Below, piece by piece: positions 17,202 through 37,429 of a stretch of 45,385 nucleotides of DNA (its first letter is position 1; each line of letters opens with the position of its first letter). Under the pieces are notes generated by a model. The model was given only the letters and a program-made list of their open reading frames with translations. It was not told the DNA's origin and made no database searches. Made by a program: the position numbers and the translations under genes. Location: positions 1 to 45,385 of IMG/VR virus record IMGVR_UViG_3300028886_000153. One strand, given 5' to 3'. This stretch comes from a virus.

Positions 17202-18665
17202 ATGTTAAGTGCTATTTTGCCGTACCTTCCGTTCATTCTGATTGCCATTGTGGTAATCGCCGTTCTCTGTAGTGGTTATGTTAAGGCTCCGCCTGATATG
17301 GCCTACATCATTTCCGGTCTCCATAAAAAGCCAAGAATTTTGATTGGTAAGGCCGGCATTAAAGTACCTTTCTTCGAGCGAATTGATAAGCTCTCTCTTG
17401 GCGCAATTCAGATTGATGTTAAGACTGGTTCCGCCGTTCCTACCGCAGAGTATATCAACGTGAGAGTTGACTCCACAGTCTCCGTGCGCGTGGGCCGTAC
17501 CGATGAAATGATTGCGCTGGCTGCACAGAACTTCCTCAATGTGGGACGAGATGAAATTGCGCGAAAGATTAACGACCTCCTGGAAGGTAATATCCGTGAA
17601 ATCGTCGGCCAGATGAAGCTGACCGAAATGATTGGCGACCGCAAGAGTTTCTCTGAAAAGGTGCAGGAGAACGCTGTTCCCGACCTTGCCAGATATGGTC
17701 TTGAACTGATTACCTTCAACGTGCAGAACTTCGTTGATGACAACGATGTTATCACCAACCTGGGTATTGACAACGTGGCGCAGATTTCCAAGAACGCTGC
17801 CATCGCCCGTTCCAATGCGGAGCGTGAGGTTGAGGTCGCCAAGGCCGAGAACGCAAAGCAGGCAAATGACGCTAAAGTCAAGGCTGCTGAGGAAATCGCC
17901 AAGAGAAACAACGACCTCGCCATTCGCCAGGCTGAACTCCAGAAGGCTGCGGATACCGAGAAGGCTCGTGCTGAAGCGGCCAAGAGCATTGAGGCCGAGA
18001 ATCAGCGTAAGCTGAAGGACGTTGCCGAGACCGAGGCCAACATCGCCAAGGCTGCCAAGGAAGCTGAACTGCGCCAGAAGGAAGTTGAGCTGAAAGAGTA
18101 TGAGCTGACTGCGCTCGTGCGCAAGCAGGCTGATGCTGACAAGTACGCTCAGGAGAAGGCCGCTGAAGCGAAGATGATTCAACAGCAGAGAGAGGCTGAA
18201 GCTCGCGCTTACGAGCAGGTGAAGAAGTCTGAGGCTGCGAAGCGTGCGACCGAGCTTGAAGCGGAAGCACGTAAGTTGCAGGCAGATGCTGATAAGTATG
18301 CGGCGATGGCTGAGGCGGAAGCTATTCGCGCGAAGGGCGAAGCCGAAGCTGAAGCAATTCGTATGAAGGGTGAAGCTGAAGCTATCGGTATTGAAAAGAA
18401 GGCCGAAGCTCAGAAGAAGATGTCTGATGCATCTGTGATTGAAATGGTAATGAATGCATTGCCAAAAATTGCAGAAAATGTTGCGGCTCCTCTTGCAAAT
18501 GTAGATAAAATCACAATGTATGGAGAGGGCGGTTCTACTAAACTTGTTGGCGATATTATTACCAACACGAGCCAGATTTTTGAAGGAGTTAAAGAATCTA
18601 CTGGATTAGATTTGAATACTCTTCTTGCTGGATATCTTGGTGGCAAAGCCGTAGATAAAACTTAA
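17202..18665 (+). CDS. flotillin-like SPFH/band-7 protein with N-terminal TM and EA-rich coiled coil
   Basis: N-terminal hydrophobic anchor, SPFH core, long AEAxAxAEA repeats, as in bacterial FloT/YqiK; AAAGGAGAAAAG RBS. Confidence 0.75.
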   Translation: MLSAILPYLPFILIAIVVIAVLCSGYVKAPPDMAYIISGLHKKPRILIGKAGIKVPFFERIDKLSLGAIQIDVKTGSAVPTAEYINVRVDSTVSVRVGRTDEMIALAAQNFLNVGRDEIARKINDLLEGNIREIVGQMKLTEMIGDRKSFSEKVQENAVPDLARYGLELITFNVQNFVDDNDVITNLGIDNVAQISKNAAIARSNAEREVEVAKAENAKQANDAKVKAAEEIAKRNNDLAIRQAELQKAADTEKARAEAAKSIEAENQRKLKDVAETEANIAKAAKEAELRQKEVELKEYELTALVRKQADADKYAQEKAAEAKMIQQQREAEARAYEQVKKSEAAKRATELEAEARKLQADADKYAAMAEAEAIRAKGEAEAEAIRMKGEAEAIGIEKKAEAQKKMSDASVIEMVMNALPKIAENVAAPLANVDKITMYGEGGSTKLVGDIITNTSQIFEGVKESTGLDLNTLLAGYLGGKAVDKT

Positions 18666-18674
18666 AATTTTTAT

Positions 18675-18709
18675 GGGCGAAGCGTTATAAAATGCTTCGC
18701 CCATTTTTC
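18675..18709 (+). terminator. rho-independent terminator GGGCGAAGC-loop-GCTTCGCCC + TTTTT
   Basis: 9-bp perfect stem and T-run. Confidence 0.65.
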
Positions 18710-18713
18710 ATAT

Positions 18714-18950
18714 TATAGGTGATTAGCATTATAAATTTAATAGATATTTTTCTATAGATAATTACAATAGAGATTGTTTAAAAAATAAATATTGTTTGGA
18801 ATATAATATAAAATTATATAGAATTCCATACTCACAAAAGAAAAATATGAGAGAATGGAAAAGCATAGAAGAATTATTACAAGAACAGTTCATTGTAAAA
18901 GAAATAGATCATTATCACTTGGGTATAGACGCCTAAAAGGCGTCTATACC
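18714..18950 (+). pseudogene. 3' remnant of a CxCxCGN/Vsr-like family gene (only ..GDQHYKFNRYF..CLEYNIKLYRIPYSQ.. C-terminal domain remains)
   Basis: in-frame translation GDQ(TAG)HYKF...NIKLYRIPYSQKKNMREWKSIEELLQEQFIVKEIDHYHLGIDA* matches C-terminal domain of the four intact paralogues; no N-terminal repeats, no start, abuts the flotillin terminator. Confidence 0.55.
18921..18949. other. perfect 12-bp hairpin GGTATAGACGCC-taaaa-GGCGTCTATACC at end of gene remnant
   Basis: seen in sequence; T-tract interrupted so terminator status uncertain. Confidence 0.4.
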
Positions 18951-19027
18951 CTTCTTTGTATCCGAAAACGGCCGAAGTTCGCCGCGCCCAGGCCCTAGCA
19001 AATTTTTTTAGCAAATAGACGGATTGG

Positions 19028-19056
19028 TTGCGTTTCCTAAAAATTTTTGCTATAAT
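19028..19056 (+). promoter_or_regulatory. sigma-A-like promoter TTGCGT-17-TATAAT
   Basis: spacing exact; precedes gene at 19094. Confidence 0.5.
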
Positions 19057-19093
19057 TATTATATGAAAAATATGTAGAAAGGAATTTTATTAT

Positions 19094-19504
19094 ATGGCAA
19101 CTACAACGAATTTTTCAATTCCTAAAGTTGATTAGGGAACAGTAATAACTGCATCAGCAATGAATGCAATTTTAGATAAAATAGATTTGGAGATGAGTCA
19201 ATTAATGATATATGAAAAATTAGTAAAAACGATAAGCGTCGTGAAGGATGTTCCTTCTAGTATGATTCCACTTACTCTACCGACAACTTGGCATTTTTGT
19301 AGAATTATTTATGGAACATCTATGCCAAATAATGAAGTTAAACTTACACCAAGTGATTGGTAGGCAGGTTTTTCATTCCGTCAAATAGAAGGTAGTTCAT
19401 ACTCTTATGTTAATCTTACATACCATAATGGAACTTATTATGTAACAAATGGTTTTGCTGTATCGCTAATTTTTGAATTTTATCAATTAGTATATAAACT
19501 CTAA
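19094..19504 (+). CDS. hypothetical protein (136 aa, 2 TAG)
   Basis: GAAAGGAA RBS; frame open to TAA 19502-19504 only with TAG sense. Confidence 0.5.
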
Positions 19505-19520
19505 GGGGGGGCTGAAATAA

Positions 19521-19955
19521 TTGACAGAACCTAAGTTCTTTTTTAATCCAGAAAAAGGTTCTTCATTATGTGTTCTAACTACAAAAAATAAGACATATGT
19601 TGGAACAGCATAGTGTCGTGATGAAGACCGCGATATGATGAGTGAAAAAACAGGATGTGAAATTGCTTATCATAGAGCCGTTATTCATGCATTAGAAGAT
19701 CATTTAGTTGAATTAAAATCAGAGCTTTCTGGCTTAAATAAATATTTTTATACTATAAATCAAAGTAAATACTATGAGCCAGAATCATATATGGCACAAA
19801 TGTTGTTTCGTCAAATCCAACAAAGAAATGACGATATCCGCATTACAAAAAATATGATTTCTAAAGAAAAAACAAATTTAAAACAATATATGGAAAATAA
19901 AGCAGAGTTTTACAAAAAAATAAGACATAATAGAAAGGCCGATTCTAACCAATAA
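19521..19955 (+). CDS. hypothetical protein (TTG start, 1 TAG)
   Basis: GGGGGGG RBS 19505-19511 then TTG 19521; ORF-track 19635-19955 is its TAG-free 3' part. Confidence 0.45.
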
Positions 19956-19995
19956 ATCCATTCGTTTTTTCATATATTTTGAACTAAAGAATGGA

Positions 19996-20271
19996 AAGGG
20001 TGATTCTTATTACTATTCTATTAGTATTTCTCGCTGGGTACGCTTTTTGCGCCTGGGGAGTGCCATTACTTGATAATGTATCTAATACCTTAACAATTTG
20101 GTTTTAGAAATTACAAGGTAAAATGGCAGTAAAGATCACCGAAGATTCGGTGAAAGCAAGTAAACTAAAAAAATCTCTTGAAGAAGAAACTGGCGAAAAG
20201 TCTCGCGCAATCGGATTCTTTATTCAAGATGATGAAGTAGAGGAAGAAGAATATGATGATGACTAAGATTT
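19996..20271 (+). CDS. small membrane protein with acidic C-terminus (1 TAG)
   Basis: TM LITILLVFLAGYAFCAWGV; overlaps PhoH start. Confidence 0.35.
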
Positions 20272-21506
20272 ATGATACTAGCAGTTTATTATTAGTTGGC
20301 GACAATCTATTCGAAAATGATGTAAATGTTGTAATTACATCGATTACTCTTAAAGAGTTAGAACGAATTAAAACTTCTGCGAATAAAGATGCCAATATTA
20401 AGTATGCGGCTCGTCAGTTGCTTCACTTACTGGACGAAAATCCCGACGCTTATGAGTGTTATATATATCGTCCACAAATGAATCAATGGCTGGAGAAGTA
20501 TGATTTAGAAATAAACGATGATGCTAAAATCTTAGCCGCAGCTTATGACTATGCTAATACACATCAAGGTGAAAATTCAATCTTTTATACGAATGATTTA
20601 GCTTTAAAAAAGATTGCTAAAATCTTCTTTGGTTATCAAGTTGATAGTGTGAAGACAGAAACTGATGACTATGTTGGATATAAAGAGCTATATCTTGATG
20701 AAAATGAAATGGCATACTTCTATTCCAATCCACAAGACTATGGTGGAGAATTAAATATTAACGAATATGTTAATATATATGATAAAAAATCCAGAGAAAG
20801 AGTTGATACTCTACTTTGGACTGGCGAAGTATTTCGTCAGCTAAAATATAAAAGTTTTATCTCTAAACAATTAGGAGAAGTAAAGCCATACAAAGGCGAT
20901 ATTTACCAGGCTATGGTTGCGGATAGTCTTATGAATAATAAGATTACGATGATTAAAGGACCTGCGGGCGCAGGTAAATCGCATCTTGCAATCGGGTATT
21001 TATTCTCTCTATTGGATAGAGGAAAAATTGATAAAATTATAGTATTTTGTAATACTGTCGCAACTAAAAACGCTGCTAAACTGGGATTTTATCCTGGCTC
21101 AAGAGACGAAAAACTTATGGATTCACAAATTGGAAACTTTTTAGCAAGTAAACTCGGCGGAAAACTTGCCGTTGAGTAGTTGATTGATAGTGAAAAACTG
21201 CTTTTACTTCCAATGAGTGATGTTAGAGGCTATGATACTTCTGGAATGAATGCTGGTATTTATATTACAGAAGCGCAAAATCTCGACGTTGAATTGTTAA
21301 AACTCGCTCTGCAAAGAGTTGGTGAAGATTCAATTATCATCCTTGATGGTGATACCAAGAGCCAAGTTGACCTAGTTGACTATGAGGGCTTTAATAATGG
21401 TATGCGTCGAGCCTCTTAGGTATTTAGAGGGTATGATATATATGGCGAGGTTGAACTTAAAACAATTCACAGAAGTAAAATTGCAGAAATAGCGAATAAA
21501 ATGTAA
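20253..21506 (+). CDS. PIN-domain + PhoH-like ATPase (YlaK/PhoH family), 417 aa, 2 TAG
   Basis: Walker A MIKGPAGAGKSHLA; N-terminal PIN-like VVITSITLKELE; ORF-track ORFs 20253-21179 and 21180-21419 are the same frame separated only by TAG; PhoH C-terminal motifs only completed after read-through. Confidence 0.75.
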
Positions 21507-21536
21507 GGTATCAATTAGATACCTTACATTTTTTAT
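21504..21536 (+). terminator. rho-independent terminator GTAAGGTATC-aattag-GATACCTTAC + T-run, stop codon in stem
   Basis: 10-bp perfect stem. Confidence 0.6.
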
Positions 21537-21551
21537 TAGGAGGGATTACAT

Positions 21552-23201
21552 ATGGCTAAAGTATTAATGATAGGCCACGCCAATGGAGATGAAAAAGGCG
21601 GTGCTTCTGGTGGTGCGGCTGGCGATTAGACCGGAAGAGAAGTATGTATATAGAAATGGTATTCAAGTGGAAGTGGATGGAATTTTGTATTACGTCCAAA
21701 ATCACCAATAATAGCAGAAAAAATGGCCGCTGCTTGCGAATGGATATGTGCTAGTAATTTAGTGGGATACGATCAAAGTCAAAGAAATACTCTTTATAAT
21801 GAATTAGAAAAGTTAAATTGGGATTATAAAAAACTGACTACTAAATGCGAAACAGACTGTTCCGCTTTTATGGGGACTTGCGCAAAAATTGCTGGTTCTA
21901 ATGTATAGAGAGTCTATGGTAATTGTTGTTACACCGGAAATCAAGTGGATTTATTTATGAAGACTGGAGATTTTATTAAACTCACAGATCCTAAATATTT
22001 AAATCAATCTACTTATTTACAACGAGGTGATGTATTGGTCCGTCATAATCCTATAACAAATGGTGGACATACTGCTATGGTTTTAGGCTGGAAAGAAGAC
22101 GGAGTAATAACTCCAATATCAACAATTAATAATGGATCATTAACAAAAACATAGATCAAAGCAATGCAAGCATATTACAATACAACTGCGGATGGTCAAT
22201 GGGGACCAAATTCTACTAAAGCTGCCGGTGGTCTTGGAGCAGATGAAGCTTGGAAAAAATATAGTGCAGCTGTGCCAGGAGATATAGACTTTGGAACTGG
22301 ATACATTTGCCGCAAAATTCCATTATCTAAAATAGAAAAAATTCAATACTATACAAATACTTCTAAAACAAAAACTTTAGATATTATAATGCAAGAAACA
22401 GGTGCAGACTATGGTATTAATGGTGTTCTATACGATATGCGTACCTGGAAACCTTGTGAAAATATAAAAGCAAACGGAGTAATTATTGCTTCGCAGCCAG
22501 CTTGGTCTAATGAAGGTTTTTATTGGACAACCGGTGCTGATATAAAGTGGGGTTATGTCCCTCTTGAAGCAGGAAAAGCTGAAAATTATATTCCAGGAAA
22601 TGGCTTAATAACCAACTTAAATTATAAATTAGCAGTAAATTGGAATGCTGAATTATCCGGGAATCGCGGTCGTACATTAGTCGGTCTTGATAATGCTAAC
22701 AATGTAGTAATTTATCAATCTTTAGATGGAACAGCCGCCGCATTAACGCCAATAAAAGCCAGAGATAAAATGGTTCAATTAAATTGTGTAAAGGGTGCTT
22801 TAAATCTTGATGGTGGTTCTTCTGTTGGCTGGTATGACAAAGCCCACCATTTATATAATAAACCAGGTAAGGGAACTGTTTAGAACTATATTTTATTTTA
22901 TTTTAAAGGAAATAATAGTATAGATACTTCACCTTCAACTAAACCTTCACAAAATTCAAATCCATATCCTGTTCCTGCTAGAACATTAAACAAAGGCTCT
23001 AAGGGAGAAGATGTAAAATATGTTCAATATATTTTATATAAGATGGGATACGGAAAAGGCACATTGTCAAGTTTTGTAGATGGTGATTTTGGATCAAATA
23101 CTGAAACTTCTGTTAAAATGTTTCAAAAATCAGCAGGATTAAAGCAAGACGGAATTGTTGGAGTAAGAACCCTATCATAGTTGCAGAAATGGAAGGGATA
23201 A
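21552..23201 (+). CDS. multidomain endolysin: N-terminal NlpC/P60- or CHAP-like cysteine peptidase, central phosphodiester-glycosidase-like domain (LDGGSS), two PG_binding_1-like repeats; 549 aa, 6 TAG
   Basis: Cys motif TDCSAF + GDVLV..GGHTAMVLG; C-terminal YVQYILYKMGY..VDGDFGSNTETSVKMFQKSAGLKQDGIVG peptidoglycan-binding signature; TTAGGAGGGATTACATATG RBS; ORF-track pieces 21723/21945/22164 are one frame joined by TAG. Confidence 0.7.
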
Positions 23202-25477: not shown

Positions 25478-25565
25478 ATATATAGAATAAATGAGAAAGG
25501 TCAGGACAGGACTGGATAATTCAATTGAAATAATCTTCATTATTTAATGAAAGGTAGTGAGGATA

Positions 25566-26342
25566 ATGAATTTTATTTACTGTTTTACAAATTTAATAAA
25601 TTAGAAAAAATATATTGGTTCAAGTTGTTCTGAAAATCCTTCTCGGAGATATTCTTAGCATATGTATTTTGTAAATCATCCAGAATAGCCAAAAGGTCAG
25701 TATCCACTATATTGTGCTATCCGCAAGTATGGAATAGAAAATTTTTCATATACTATTTTAGAATATTTACCGGATGATATTTCAGAGGATAAATTGCGTG
25801 AAATTGAACACGATTATTTGATAAAAAATAATGTATTAGTGCCAAATGGGTATAATCAAACATTAGATACTAAACATCCTAGAAATGACCCTCTTATTTA
25901 TCAAAAAGTTCGTGAAACTAAACGAAATAATGCAAAAAGAGTGGCAGAAATTGATAATAATCAATAGATAATACAAATTTGGAGAAGTATTGTTGATTGT
26001 GCCGAACAAACAGGATATAATGAAAGGCATATTGCTGATTGTTGTAGAGGAGAACGTAAATCAACAGCAGGAAAGATGTTTTGTTGGATTAATGATGAAG
26101 ATGAATTATTAATTCCTACTTATCATCGTAATCTTTATAAAGGATAGCCCGGAACTACACAAATATAGTCTTCAAGTAGGAAAGTCGCTAAAATAGATGA
26201 AGATAATAATATTTTAATGATTTATGATACTTTGGCATTAGCGGCAAGAGAAAACAATTGTGATAGTAGTGCTATTTCAAAAGTTTGTAAAGGAATACGA
26301 AATAAATGTGGAGGATTTAAATGGTAGTATGTCAATGAATGA
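25566..26342 (+). CDS. free-standing GIY-YIG homing endonuclease (258 aa, 7 TAG)
   Basis: IYCFTNLINQKKYIGSS..R..H GIY-YIG motif; C-terminal NUMOD-like helix (VAKIDEDNNILMIYDTLALAAREN); sits directly upstream of the topoisomerase gene, like T4 seg/mob genes. Confidence 0.7.
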
Positions 26343-27851
26343 AATAAAAGATAAAACATTATATACAGAAGATAGTATTGAAAGTTTGGCTCCGCTGGAA
26401 TTCACACGTCTGCGGCCGCAAGTATATGCTGGAGACTGCACTTACTCAACCTAGCTGTTAGTTGAAATCTTTTCTAATGCTGTTGACGAGTTTAGATTAG
26501 GTCATGGTAATAAAATTGAAGTAACCATTGATAAAGACATAGTATCTGTACGAGATTATGGTCAGGGTTTTATTCCAAATAGCTTCAGGGATGATGGAAA
26601 GACAATCCTTGAGGCTGCTTTTAGTGTCCTGAATACTTCCGGTAAATACCGCGAAGACGGAACATATGAAGGAACTTCTCTTGGTTCATTCGGTATTGGC
26701 TCTAAAATAACTACATTCCTTTCCCATTGGCTGCATGTAAGAACGTGGAGAGATGGAAAAACAGAAAGAGTTGCTTTCAAAGAAGGCGTTTTTGATGTAA
26801 GAGGATCTTTAGAAGAATCTTCTGACCCAAAGGAAACAGGAACTTTTGTAACTTGGCAACCAAGCGAAGAATTTTTTACTCATACAGAAGTAAATATTAA
26901 CGAAGTAAAAAATTTATTTAAAACTATCGCTTGTCTTTGTCCTGGTCTAACCATTGAACTTAATGATAATGGTACAAAAACAACTTATAGTTCTAAAAAT
27001 GGTATCAGCGATTTGGTTGATGAAGCGGTCAAAGGGAAAGAGTTGATTGATCATCGTTTCAATCTTCAATTTGCGAATGGGAAAAATAAGATTGATATGG
27101 TTATGACATATACATCTAATTATTCAATGACTATGGTGCCTTATGTCAACACAGGTCTTACTTCTGTTGGTCCGCATATCACTCAAATTAAAGCACTTCT
27201 TACAAGGGAATTTAACAAGTTCTTCAAAGACAAGAAGTGGATTAAAGATGGTGAAGATAACCTCTCCGGCGAAGATATCCAAGAGGGACTTTACATTGTA
27301 TTTAATATTACTGCTCCAAATGTGGCCTACGATGCGCAGGTAAAAACTCGTGTAACAAAATTGGAAATGAGTCCATATACTGCGGCGATTGCCGAGGAAA
27401 TGCGTATTTGGCTGGCCTCAAATGAAAAAGAAATCAAAGCAATTGCGGATAAGGCTAAAATGGCAAAGAAGGCTCGTGAGGCTGCCGCAAAAGCCAGAGA
27501 TGCAGTTCGTGATAAGCAAGCTAAAAAGGAAAAAGCTCTAAAGTTTGATTCTAAATTAGCAGATTGTTATAGCAAAGATAGAAAGAAATGCGAACTTTAT
27601 ATTACAGAGGGTGATTCTGCTTCTGGAAACCTCAAGCAAGCAAGAGATAATGAGTTCCAGGCAGTACTTCCTGTTCGTGGTAAAATTTTGAATACCCACA
27701 AAGCAGGAGTTGATAAAATCCAGAAAAATGCTGAAATTATGACAATGATGGATGCTTTTGGATTGGAAATCGACCCAAGAACAATGAAAGTTACCTATGA
27801 TAAGAATAAAATTAGATATGGTAAGATTATTATTATGAGCGATGCCGACGT
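26329..27851 (+). CDS. type II DNA topoisomerase large (GyrB/T4 gp39-like ATPase) subunit, exon 1
   Basis: LEFTRLRPQVYAGD..VDE (GyrB N-terminus), GHKL ATPase region, Toprim ELYITEGDSASG, ends ..IIIMSDADV at the DADVDG motif; 1 TAG. Confidence 0.8.
26411..26420. repeat. TGCGGCCGCA palindrome copy 5 (topoisomerase exon 1)
   Basis: exact 10-mer. Confidence 0.9.
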
Positions 27852-28061
27852 CAATAAACCGGCGTATGAAAGACTTTTCGCCTAATCCGGCGGGTAAAAT
27901 TTTCGGACAAAACATATTTATGTGACCCATACGGTTCTCATATAAATATGAAAGAGAAAAAATTTTGCTAACGGGGAACCCTAAACCGTAAGGCATGGGA
28001 ATCCCGTGGGAAACAAATATTTATCCATTCTCTTTCAAATATATAATGAAGGAGAATAAAA

Positions 28062-28775
28062 ATGATAGGAATTTATAAAATCACTGAAATTGATAATCCT
28101 AACAATTTTTATGTTGGGTATAGTAATAATATAAAAAGAAGATTTAAAGAACATCAATAGAAAACTTATGAACAATCTCGTATTCCTTTTGATGATGAAA
28201 TAAAGAAAAAAGGTATTGAATCTTTTACTTATGAAATTTTAGAAGAATGTTCTGTTGAGGAATTACCAGCACGCGAAAGATATTGGACTGATAAATTAGA
28301 AGCAACAAAAGCCGGTAATGTTTTTGATGGAGGAATAAGTAATTTAGTTGGTGAAAATAATCCAAATAAAAAGATTACAGAAGATGATGTAAAAATCATT
28401 CGTCAATCCTATGCTAAACATAAAAAACAAAAAGATGTATATGAGTAGTTCAAAGATAAAATTACTTTTAGTTACTTTCAAAATCTTTGGCAAGGACGGT
28501 CTTGGAGTCATATTATGCCAGAAGTTTTTACCGAAGAAAATAAAAATTATTATATTTATCAAAATAGTAATGGAAGTAATGGTGCTTCCGCAAAATTTAC
28601 TGATGATGAAGTAATAAATATTAGAAAAAGATATGTCAATGAAAGTGCTAAAAAAATATATGAAGATTATAAAGATAGAATATCTTTTCAATCTTTTCAA
28701 CAAATTCTTTGGGGTAGATATTACTCTGAACTTCCTATCTATAAGAAAAAAGAGAAAAAATGGATAAATATTTGA
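28062..28775 (+). CDS. intron-encoded GIY-YIG homing endonuclease (237 aa, 2 TAG)
   Basis: IGIYKITEIDNPNNFYVGYSNNIKRRFKEHQ; GAAGGAGAA RBS; in intron loop. Confidence 0.7.
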
Positions 28776-28883: not shown

Positions 28884-28926
28884 AAAAGTTAGTCAGTGCT
28901 TATGGAAACATAAGAATAAAAACACG

Positions 28927-29329
28927 CGATGGCGCTCATATTAAGAATCTTTTCTATACATTTGTGTGGAATTTCTGTCCACAGCTAATTGAAGATGGTT
29001 TTGTATATGCTGGTGTTCCACCTCTTTATAAAATCACTACAAGTAAGGGATATAAATATCTCAAAAATGACGATGATTTGAAGGCATATCAGAAAGCAAA
29101 TACTGGTAAGGCATATAAGGTCAATCGTATGAAGGGTCTTGGTGAGATGGATGTTGAAGAAACGGAAGAAACTCTTACCGACCCAGGACAAAGAATTATT
29201 AAGCAGGTTACAATTAGTGATGCTGATGCTGCTAAAAAATTATTTGATGATTTGATGGGAACTGCGGTTACTCCTCGAAAAGTCTATATTAAAGAACATA
29301 GTGAGGAGGCAACTTATAATGCAGAATAA
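28927..29329 (+). CDS. type II topoisomerase large subunit, exon 2 (T4 gp60-equivalent region)
   Basis: DGAHIKNLFYTFVWNFCPQLIEDGFVYAGVPPLYK..MKGLGEMD..LMGTAVTPRKVYI matches GyrB C-terminus. Confidence 0.8.
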
Positions 29330-34870: not shown

Positions 34871-34886
34871 TTAAAGCATAAATTAT

Positions 34887-34920
34887 GCGGGGTGGGTTAA
34901 TCGCCCACTCCGCATTTTTT
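34887..34920 (+). terminator. rho-independent terminator GCGGGGTGGG-ttaatc-GCCCACTCCGC + T6
   Basis: GC-rich stem + T-run. Confidence 0.6.
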
Positions 34921-34923
34921 ATA

Positions 34924-35913
34924 ATGATTATCCTATATGTACTTATCGGCCTACTTGTAGGAAGTCTTGGGATCTATTTACTACTTAGGCCGAAATTAAA
35001 AATTACTGCTCAAAAAAATATTGCTATAGAATAGGCAAATCAATAGCTTGAAATTCAAAATAGTAATTTGCTTGATGTTCAACAACATCGCAAAGAATTA
35101 TTAGATAAAACAACTCAAGAATATCATGAAATGGGAGCCAAAAGAGAAGAAATCAAAAAGGCTCTTGAAGATTTGCGCGAAACATAGCAAAAAGCCGCTG
35201 AAGACTTATATAGTTAGGCTTTAAATATTGCCGAAAATTCATATGAAAAAGAAATTGACCGAATTAGTGATGACTTATTTCAACATCGCGAAGAAGCGAA
35301 AAATCTTTACCTTCAAGTCACTGAAGAGGCCGTCCAAGAGTTTGAAGAAGCTATTGAAGAAAAAGAAAAAGAATTTTCATATTGGAATGGACGAATTATT
35401 GCCTTACAAAAAGATGTATAGGTCGCTCTTGAAGCGGCTTAGCGCAAACTCGCCATGGAAACATAGCAAGACTATTATCGTGTATGTCTATCCGATGAAG
35501 ATGTTACAGAGATAAAACGCTTGCGCGAAGTGCTTCCATATTTGCGCGACAAAACTCCATTGAATAAAGTTATTTATAAAGTTTATTATGAACGACCATT
35601 AACAGACATGATTGGCAGAGTGGTCGGAACTGGTGTTCATACTGGTATTTATAAAATTACTAACATTAATAACGGAATGTGTTATGTAGGCCAAGCCGCA
35701 AACATTGCAGATCGCTGGAAACAGCATTGTAAACGCGGTGTTGGCGCAGAAGACTGGACCCAGAATAAACTTTACCCAGCTATGTATTCTCTTGGAGTTG
35801 AAAATTTTACTTTTGAGATTGTTGAAGAATGCAGTAGAGATGCTCTCAATGAGAGAGAAGATTATTGGCAAGATTATTTTCACGCAAAAGATTTTGGATA
35901 TAGTATAAAATGA
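34924..35913 (+). CDS. membrane-anchored coiled-coil protein with C-terminal GIY-YIG/T5orf172-like domain (DUF4041-T5orf172-like architecture), 329 aa, 8 TAG; start uncertain
   Basis: N-terminal TM IILYVLIGLLVGSLGIYLLL, coiled coil, C-terminal GIYKITNINNGMCYVGQAANIADRWKQH; no SD (terminator immediately upstream); ORF-track 35521-35913 is the TAG-free 3' part. Confidence 0.5.
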
Positions 35914-37368: not shown

Positions 37369-37429
37369 AAAATTGGTCAAAATCCTTTCATACTATAAAA
37401 ATAATTTTTATATTTAATAGAATGGAGGA

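Follow-up and report, generated by a model that had tools for sequence, protein, structure and literature searches.

Why should a phage carry, and keep, a complete flotillin? The question is raised by a gene at positions 17202-18665 (plus strand) of what we call the window, the whole 45,385-nucleotide stretch of viral DNA analyzed here (IMG/VR virus record IMGVR_UViG_3300028886_000153, positions 1 to 45,385). The gene (ATG start, TAA stop, 487 amino acids, GC content at third codon positions, GC3, of 0.52) encodes a FloT-type SPFH scaffold protein, and the window itself is DNA of a large uncultured gut or rumen phage belonging to a ~190-kb family. Our preferred answer, which we hold to be rather probable, is that the phage flotillin would be an early-made SPFH scaffold on the host membrane, supplying or replacing the host flotillin scaffold during infection. 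The flotillin family itself is known; what is new here is an SPFH “slot” in these phage genomes, chimeric flotillins with host-like parts, and the avoidance of the codon TAG by a gene in a TAG-recoded genome.

The first-pass annotation, made from the letters of the sequence, had described a full-length flotillin with a transmembrane anchor, an SPFH domain and an EA-rich coiled coil, and Pfam, hydropathy, composition, AlphaFold and phmmer together bear this description out. The protein begins with a predicted hydrophobic membrane anchor at residues ~2-27 (17205-17282; this and the following features are on the plus strand), placed by Kyte-Doolittle hydropathy and a predicted helix at 2-23; its only hydrophobic segment is at residues ~3-27, with 19-residue windows exceeding 1.6 only at starts 1-13 and reaching a maximum of 2.88. 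A near-invariant motif, YVKAPPDxAYIISG in the alignment columns, directly precedes the SPFH/Band_7 domain, which occupies residues 30-207 (17289-17822) according to Pfam (PF01145, E 3.3e-21, 76.6 bits vs a cutoff of 23.6), the predicted structure and Foldseek. The helical region that follows, at residues 208-400 (17823-18401), consists to 72% of A, E, K, Q and R and contains 18 EA dipeptides; it is predicted to be a single helix and is colinear with the helices of flotillin-1 in the phmmer alignment. The flotillin C-terminal family domain (Pfam Flot, PF15975, E 5.3e-09, 36.7 bits vs a cutoff of 27) lies at residues 381-447 (18342-18542), a part modeled with low confidence in the monomer; with it, both of the domains that the annotation had expected stand above their Pfam cutoffs. 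The NCBIfam FloT model NF058507 aligns full length (protein residues 42-478) at 237.2 bits, and because this is far under the equivalog cutoff of 700, we file the protein as a flotillin family protein and not as FloT itself. A ribosome-binding site, AAGGAG, can be read from the sequence at 17188-17193 (plus strand), 8 nt 5' of the ATG.

The predicted structure agrees with this layout. The AlphaFold monomer shows a helix (2-23), then an alpha/beta domain (25-186, pLDDT ~75-84) and a single helix (203-390, pLDDT >80), and its top Foldseek matches are flotillin complexes (best 9l3g_A, E 3.8e-17), with the Band 7 domain of flotillin-2 (1win) matched at TMt 0.79 and a root-mean-square deviation of 1.9. 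After the flotillins come the SPFH cages of QmcA, prohibitin, HflK/C, stomatin and erlin, at E 1e-10 to 1e-8. The matches include 9bq2, 9l3g, 8z5g, 7vhq and 8rrh, all of them established cage-forming assemblies. In a phmmer search against the PDB, human flotillin-1 (9bq2_B) was colinear with phage residues 30-336 and 368-472 (E 8.8e-48), the latter pairing with flotillin-1 residues 309-417. Judging from the solved flotillin complexes, the A/E/K/Q/R-rich helix would be expected to form the wall of an oligomeric cage.

Among known systems, the closest in build are FloT (YuaG) of Bacillus subtilis and the flotillins of Clostridia, which have the same length and architecture (anchor, SPFH, EA-rich helix, flotillin C-domain); the phage gene differs from them in having operon partners of the phosphoesterase, kinase and RNA-ligase types, in having no NfeD neighbor, and in being TAG-free within a TAG-recoded genome. 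The eukaryotic flotillin-1/flotillin-2 complex (9bq2, 9l3g) is colinear over the SPFH domain, helices and C-terminal region, but identity is only 23-27%; the solved complex is a large membrane-attached dome, and a similar assembly may be inferred for the phage protein, known here from its sequence and a monomer model. Eukaryotic flotillins attach by acylation and a hydrophobic hairpin rather than by an N-terminal helix. The HflK/C, QmcA-YbbJ, stomatin, prohibitin and erlin cages have the same SPFH fold followed by a cage-wall helix but are shorter and lack the flotillin C-domain, and their known partners, FtsH for HflK/C and NfeD for QmcA, were not seen beside the phage flotillin gene. Relatives of this phage carry short SPFH proteins of the general HflK/C-stomatin type in place of flotillin.

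In phages, SPFH-domain proteins have been annotated in the Pseudomonas KPP10/PAK_P3 group, Xanthomonas X1 and GIB1, with their role undemonstrated (PMC8540360, PMC13384950, PMC13239085); these are short SPFH proteins or lipoproteins of Gram-negative phages and are not described as full-length flotillins. The literature on phage-encoded flotillin yielded only such SPFH-domain annotations, together with a phage whose integration site is host floA, and we found no description of a full-length phage flotillin. Only 9 of 50,697 deposited phage records matched the flotillin, mostly as short unannotated fragments, and a PHROGs search found no family matching its SPFH or flotillin domains, only weak coiled-coil noise.

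The gene is no accident of assembly. An identical flotillin with identical neighbors occurs in three independent assemblies, so that the locus is not an assembly chimera, and an orthologue with 88% identity stands at the same position in contigs of 55-189 kb. Flotillin relatives were found in IMG/VR at 51 loci by a pattern scan and in 123 viral stretches by an alignment-based scan (collection scans used short exact peptide patterns, with 80 loci kept and ~15-20 kb visible around each). The order kinase, Metallophos_2, flotillin, PIN-PhoH recurs, in marker searches, in low-GC, TAG-recoded loci. Among the ~58 unique phage orthologues none is a pseudogene, a finding which, like the clear SPFH match, goes against what might have undone the first reading; the syntenic copies are all intact at 455-494 amino acids, apart from one cut by a contig end and one with a single in-frame TAG. 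With dN/dS of 0.005-0.16 between phage copies (Nei-Gojobori, synonymous sites often being saturated), the phage flotillin is under strong purifying selection.

Where did the gene come from? A homologue with 73% identity lies in a genuine rumen Oscillospiraceae chromosome, flanked by cytochrome c biogenesis genes on one side and by upp, tsaD, tsaE and ftsW on the other; chromosomal Oscillospiraceae flotillins from eight species in this common housekeeping context are 70-73% identical to the phage protein, and their GC3 of 0.92 is like that of their neighbors (0.82-0.90). The homologues at 74-75% identity are all phage-borne, so that most of the diversity of this subfamily resides in phages. We built a neighbor-joining (not maximum likelihood) tree of 122 unique sequences with 100 bootstraps, in which the deep nodes of the main clade are weak (6-38%). 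A clade of 32 phage and 8 bacterial flotillins has 98% bootstrap support, phage-only monophyly appears in 1% of replicates, and the bacterial clade is sister to the subclade of this phage at 75%, a node that compositional attraction could affect. These comparisons indicate that flotillin has been exchanged between this phage family and Clostridia, the closest being rumen Oscillospiraceae, in whichever direction the oldest transfer ran. We rejected GC3 as a clock for that direction, with GC3 raised across the whole operon (0.41-0.61) and synonymous sites saturated. The flotillin locus of the Oscillospiraceae chromosome (L004-L006) also has an integrase/HTH_17 mobile element, but this lies ~4.5 kb downstream, separated from the flotillin by upp, tsaD, tsaE and ftsW, and probably has nothing to do with it.

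Import of a bacterial-type SPFH module can be seen directly in chimeric genes of two phage lineages. Scanned by windows, the flotillin at L044:7366-8766 is 75-98% identical to chromosomal Oscillospiraceae flotillins vs 38-62% to phage copies over residues ~41-220 (window starts 41-181), whereas over residues ~261-340 (starts 261-301) it is 78-92% identical to phage copies vs 42-55% to bacterial ones. The crossover, near residue 205-225, falls where the SPFH domain gives way to the coiled coil. Two further loci, L039 (10001-11479) and L040, are built alike, except that the N-termini joined to the phage-type C-terminal part are Lachnospiraceae-like, and the L039 flotillin has a 29-residue insertion within its SPFH domain. 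For the N-terminal module of L044, import from bacterium to phage would be the parsimonious reading. A host-derived auxiliary gene is marked by close homologues in cells and by being retained, under purifying selection, in more than one phage lineage, and both are found here.

The presence of the gene varies from lineage to lineage. We surveyed the slot by anchoring on the conserved PIN-PhoH gene, fetching 80 of 294 related viral loci and dereplicating lineages at 90% PhoH identity, which left 28 with the slot in view (~15 kb). Seventeen of these carry flotillin, three a short SPFH gene, one is mixed (short SPFH or none) and seven have none in view. Flotillin lies between Metallophos_2 and PhoH in many loci, and 15 loci have both flanks without it; the latter include the nearest relatives of this phage by PhoH and TopoA (L308, L320). 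DNA homology to flotillin-less relatives (blastn; L320, L312) spans 16329-16864 and resumes at 18967-19073; L320 and L308 align on both sides, and in L320 the ~2.1-kb interval has shrunk to ~340 bp. The flotillin is thus an accessory cassette at the 3' end of its operon. The first-pass annotation had noticed neither this polymorphic slot nor the exchange with bacteria nor the lack of TAG in the gene.

What fills the slot elsewhere is in some lineages another SPFH gene. In L354 and L350 it holds a 298-amino-acid protein with Band_7 (E 1.9e-24 for that of L354) and without the flotillin domain, in L332, L334 and L320 short SPFH proteins lie slightly upstream in the same region, and in L317, L323 and L328 the same slot is occupied by distinct flotillin lineages (~510 amino acids, ~44% identical to all others). 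Since relatives carry a non-orthologous short SPFH protein or a host-like SPFH module, what is selected would seem to be SPFH scaffolding of a generic kind that suits the host membrane. One flotillin-less slot between Metallophos_2 and PhoH is of another kind altogether: at L344:3064-6073 (minus strand) there are two ~400-amino-acid open reading frames (ORFs) with Cys motifs that we read by eye as radical-SAM-like, along with a Cys-rich ORF of 211 amino acids, so that it looks like a peptide-maturation-type cassette and not a membrane scaffold.

When the protein is made can be approached through the genetic code of the phage, which uses TAG as a sense codon, most likely for Gln. Reading through TAG raises plus-strand ORF coverage from 68% to 88%, and no long ORF ends in TAG; in the PhoH motif LLDSQIGN of a relative, the invariant Gln is written as TAG. 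Only if TAG is translated as Gln does 21552-23201 give a whole endolysin (ELLD 4e-55, NAGPA, PG_binding_1), there being eight TAGs over the endolysin frame 21507-23201, and the gene at 20253-21506 is a further example of TAG used as a sense codon. Such a code (code 15) has been documented in gut phages (PMC9523058). ARAGORN and Rfam returned nothing, and therefore there is no suppressor tRNA or known RNA in the window.

Flotillin stays out of this recoding almost entirely. The gene of this phage has no in-frame TAG, and across 58 unique phage flotillins there is 1 TAG vs 1,420 CAA/CAG, whereas the share of TAG at such positions is 9.3% and 12.8% in the two genes just downstream and 7.4% in RNase H; TopoA and the operon genes ahead of flotillin have no TAG or almost none. 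Two classes of gene can be told apart, a TAG-free one (MVP, that is, major vault protein, RNA ligase, phosphoesterases, flotillin, TopoA and NAD ligase, most with higher GC) and a TAG-rich one (PIN-PhoH, small ORFs at 19067-19955, RNase H in relatives, endolysin and homing endonucleases), and these may correspond to early vs late expression. Because flotillin is nearly TAG-free despite deep divergence, its codon usage suggests translation before recoding sets in, either early, under the standard code, or independently of the recoding machinery. Borges et al., in 2022, are said to have proposed that recoded stops delay late and lysis genes; to that picture of stop-codon-recoded phages our data would add a TAG-free “early” gene class.

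The other genes of the window mark it as phage DNA. The window carries T4-like topoisomerase II subunits, RNase H, an NAD-dependent ligase, thymidylate synthase, a Sak4-like protein and a DnaB-like helicase (PHROGs), and its relatives are syntenic IMG/VR contigs, many of 150-200 kb. A nucleotide search of 14000-22000 against deposited phages gave no match, and we found no close cultured relative of the family, the best TopoA match being at ~41%. That the host is Gram-positive is suggested by the lysin types, PG_binding_1 in this phage and CHAP and GH25 among its relatives. Members of the family also turn up under bacterial names: five GTDB contigs (L063, L064, L067, L069, L070) from metagenome-assembled genomes labeled Mollicutes, Clostridium sp., Lachnospiraceae and Clostridia belong to it by their low GC, TAG signature and kinase/phosphoesterase/flotillin/PhoH order, and a single “Mollicutes” bin holds two different phages of the family.

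How might such a protein serve the phage? In the reading that we prefer, flotillin would be translated early, while TAG still means stop, and would insert into the cytoplasmic membrane of a Gram-positive host by its N-terminal hydrophobic segment, with the SPFH domain bound to the inner membrane face. Subunits would then join through the long helix and C-terminal domain into a dome or cage of the kind solved for flotillin, HflK/C, QmcA, stomatin and prohibitin, and this assembly could corral or isolate a patch of membrane. Like other host-derived auxiliary phage genes, it might substitute for or reinforce the host scaffold once host gene expression has been taken over, the benefit presumably being that membrane fluidity, membrane integrity and membrane-bound machines are kept working through the long cycle of a ~190-kb phage. 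Since an intact and strongly conserved flotillin is carried, these phages probably reorganize or stabilize the host cell membrane during infection, and membrane microdomain or scaffold remodeling, proposed in the first-pass annotation, is still the best functional guess that we can infer. The function of bacterial flotillins is itself still debated.

Several observations weigh against this reading. The AlphaFold monomer is only moderately confident (mean pLDDT 66, and below 50 for residues 393-457). In one lineage out of four no SPFH gene is seen within the ~15 kb viewed, so that an SPFH function is either dispensable or supplied elsewhere. The operon is not purely standard-code, because the tail of Metallophos_2 holds three TAGs, and the TAG-free state of flotillin could partly reflect repeated recent import from standard-code bacteria. 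Finally, no NfeD partner was found among the operon and neighboring proteins; NfeD is typical of many bacterial SPFH operons, is not obligatory, and is also absent beside the closest bacterial homologues.

Other roles for the same protein have to be set against that of a general scaffold. FloT/FloA have been reported to regulate or cage FtsH in Bacillus, as HflK/C do in E. coli, and HflK/C, FtsH and lambda CII are linked. The phage flotillin might accordingly be a specific regulator or cage of host FtsH, protecting phage proteins from degradation or redirecting FtsH, with effects on cell division and membrane-protein turnover; we think this unlikely, though it is the strongest of the competitors. 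HflK/C-FtsH cages (9cz2, 7wi3, 7vhq) are among the Foldseek matches, and the replacement of flotillin by non-orthologous short HflC/prohibitin-like SPFH proteins would fit a shared client such as FtsH, but nothing in the sequence identifies FtsH as that client. The HflK/C-FtsH-CII link has been offered as an explanation for the SPFH genes of Pseudomonas phages (PMC8540360), which lends the idea some precedent; in our window no lysogeny module (integrase, repressor) was seen, making a CII-like decision unlikely. A role with FtsH would in any case be a special case of the scaffold model and not an alternative architecture. Slightly less likely again is that the cassette is a “moron”-type protective gene, acting in superinfection exclusion by keeping competing phages from injecting their DNA, or buffering the membrane against abortive-infection effectors or a premature holin. 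Its accessory presence or absence at the end of an operon with its own terminator, its rapid turnover and replacement by other SPFH genes or host-like modules, as is typical of conflict genes, and its nature as a membrane protein that is probably early-made would all suit such a role. On the other hand, no PADLOC defense family matches flotillin or the MVP homologue at E up to 0.01, dN/dS is low throughout with no sign of diversifying selection, and the closest bacterial homologues sit among housekeeping genes and not in defense islands; we know of no SPFH protein that blocks competing phages or buffers abortive-infection effectors. Least credible of all is the notion of a recently captured, functionless host passenger, or of bacterial DNA mis-joined to a phage contig. 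It could draw on the high similarity to chromosomal bacterial genes (72%) and on a GC above that of the AT-rich parts of the window, but flotillin holds the same position in dozens of divergent phages as well as in the three assemblies of this one, synonymous sites are saturated while dN/dS is at most 0.16 and all copies are intact, and the neighboring operon genes share the raised GC3; conservation and selection refute it.

The most eye-catching alternative brings in a vault protein. As the first-pass annotation had noted, the same genome encodes an MVP homologue (1815-4229, plus strand, 804 amino acids), now backed by Pfam matches to MVP_shoulder (1.2e-20) and Vault_3 (2.4e-09), with relatives 39-85% identical in at least 81 viral contigs of IMG/VR. 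Phage MVPs have been reported in a 2023 preprint that makes no mention of flotillin or SPFH (10.1101/2023.11.10.566534). The claim that the MVP shoulder is SPFH-like holds at the level of structure, where Foldseek pairs the flotillin model with vaults (9r86, 9z4w, 4v60 and others) across 330-440 columns, with E values of 5e-8 to 6e-7, and is only marginal in sequence: an SPFH-only seed profile reached one phage MVP subgroup at E 1e-4 (residues 497-651, the shoulder and the start of the cap helix), and HHalign of flotillin against MVP family alignments gave a probability of 15%, that is, no similarity. A second profile round matched all MVPs at ~1e-20, but three MVP ORFs, representing two distinct sequences, had by then been taken into the profile, and we set these matches aside as circular. 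Shoulder and cap helix of MVP thus resemble the SPFH domain and helix of flotillin, and both proteins are of cage-forming kinds and present in this phage family, but MVP has repeat domains, no membrane anchor and no useful sequence similarity to flotillin, and a likeness of folds does not show interaction.

That the two proteins would co-assemble or act jointly, through SPFH or shoulder domains and helices, in a phage-specific compartment is accordingly very improbable in our judgment. Most long flotillin-positive contigs also carry MVP, and both the structural matches and the contact of the seed profile with one MVP shoulder could be cited in favor. In L182, moreover, what seems to be a distant relative of the short SPFH protein of L354, with a weak 27% identity, lies ~300 bp upstream of MVP, which would also suit a partnership; this candidate is missing from our profile survey of ORFs of at least 100 amino acids. 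Nothing in the genome organization supports joint action, since MVP lies 13 kb upstream of flotillin in a separate transcription unit and the two, both of them accessory, are not obligately co-present. A comparison of contig lists from the pattern-based scans, capped at 80 loci, gives genomes with both genes, MVP-only contigs (L344, L354, L367, L368, the flotillin absences being provisional) and flotillin-positive contigs of 188-196 kb with no detected MVP (L324, L317, L328, L373, L374, L383, likewise provisional). The profile-profile similarity is nil, and MVP lacks a membrane anchor; eukaryotic vaults are cytosolic homo-oligomers. A broader conjecture is that the family builds its own membrane SPFH compartments, enclosing a host machine such as FtsH or serving phage replication or assembly, with the SPFH module re-matched to the host again and again through recombination with its flotillin gene, a private phage coiled coil preventing mixing with host cages, and the chromosomal flotillin of one Oscillospiraceae lineage perhaps derived from phage. 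As a whole we regard this as improbable, if less so than a vault partnership; were it true, here would be a virus with two related cage-forming proteins, flotillin bound to the membrane and MVP in the cytosol.

If the phage flotillin is instead, as we prefer, a scaffold standing in for that of the host, its retention by viruses under strong purifying selection, with SPFH modules exchanged for host-like ones and, in some lineages, a different SPFH protein in its place, would imply that generic SPFH scaffolding is valuable when infecting Gram-positive gut bacteria, and the list of host-derived phage genes would widen from metabolism to membrane organization. Gene flow of flotillin between phages and rumen Oscillospiraceae is documented along the way, and the more exciting idea of a flotillin-vault partnership, unsupported by the data, is tempered.

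The surroundings of the gene complete the description. The operon, a set of RNA-repair-like enzymes between terminators, has flotillin as its last gene, so that its placement in a phage “cargo” operon by the first-pass annotation was well founded: it is the 3'-terminal gene of a hairpin-bounded unit. The left bound is an upstream terminator hairpin at 13901-13929, followed by a promoter-like site at 13930-13957 where the operon starts. The genes in between, all on the plus strand, encode a Metallophos phosphoesterase (14529-15311, Pfam), a 74-amino-acid membrane protein (15377-15601), a small zinc-ribbon-like protein (15603-15881), an AAA_33 kinase-like protein (15766-16335, Pfam) and, directly upstream of flotillin and forming the left border of the cassette, the Metallophos_2 phosphoesterase (16317-17111, Pfam and read-through translation). 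The Metallophos_2 core ends at the TAG at 16896-16898, and the frame runs on, through three TAGs in total, into a Cys-rich tail that ends in RDPPDGGYYG. This tail is conserved, being fused as one ORF in L344 and a separate ORF in L313, and the gene is called at 264 amino acids in L387 and L388. Because the frame continues through TAGs into a conserved tail, Metallophos_2 could yield a short product before recoding and a long one after. The gene order of the operon recurs in L001-L003 and L387-L392, and no second SPFH gene was found in the window.

Downstream, an intrinsic-terminator-like hairpin (18673-18704, plus strand, 14 pairs and a T-run) starts 8 nt past the flotillin stop, and a second terminator-like hairpin (18921-18951, plus strand, 14 pairs, 8 of them GC) lies within the segment absent from flotillin-less relatives. 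The right border of the cassette is a conserved intergenic element (18967-19073, plus strand) at which blastn homology to those relatives resumes; it has 75-78% DNA identity among this phage, L312 and L320, and consists of a GC-rich part and then TGcTATAAT, a -10-like motif read by eye at 19048-19056 (plus strand). Probably it serves the following unit as promoter or operator; Rfam gave no match there or elsewhere in the window.

Further upstream of the operon lie genes for an RNA ligase, an RNase T-type exonuclease, NADAR, another phosphoesterase and an RlaP-type nucleotidyltransferase. Taken together, the RNA-repair-like set over 7718-16898 is dense (an RlaP-type nucleotidyltransferase, three calcineurin-like phosphoesterases, NADAR, an RNase T-type exonuclease, an RNA ligase with a PHA02142 OB domain and the AAA_33 kinase-like protein) and resembles the T4 Pnkp/Rnl-style countermeasure to tRNA- or RNA-cleaving defenses.

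The window is also rich in homing-endonuclease-like genes. Pfam identifies four of the GIY-YIG type (25551-26342, 28050-28775, 34882-35913 and 43714-44478), all AT-rich and TAG-rich. Three further genes (1091-1810, 8616-9521 and 37418-38356) are homing-endonuclease-like and likewise AT- and TAG-rich, with shared CxCDCGN repeats and an EFDGEQHY-type C-terminus; the one that was tested had no Pfam match. One of the GIY-YIG genes lies between the pieces of a gyrB-like topoisomerase subunit (26221-27885 and 28886-29329).

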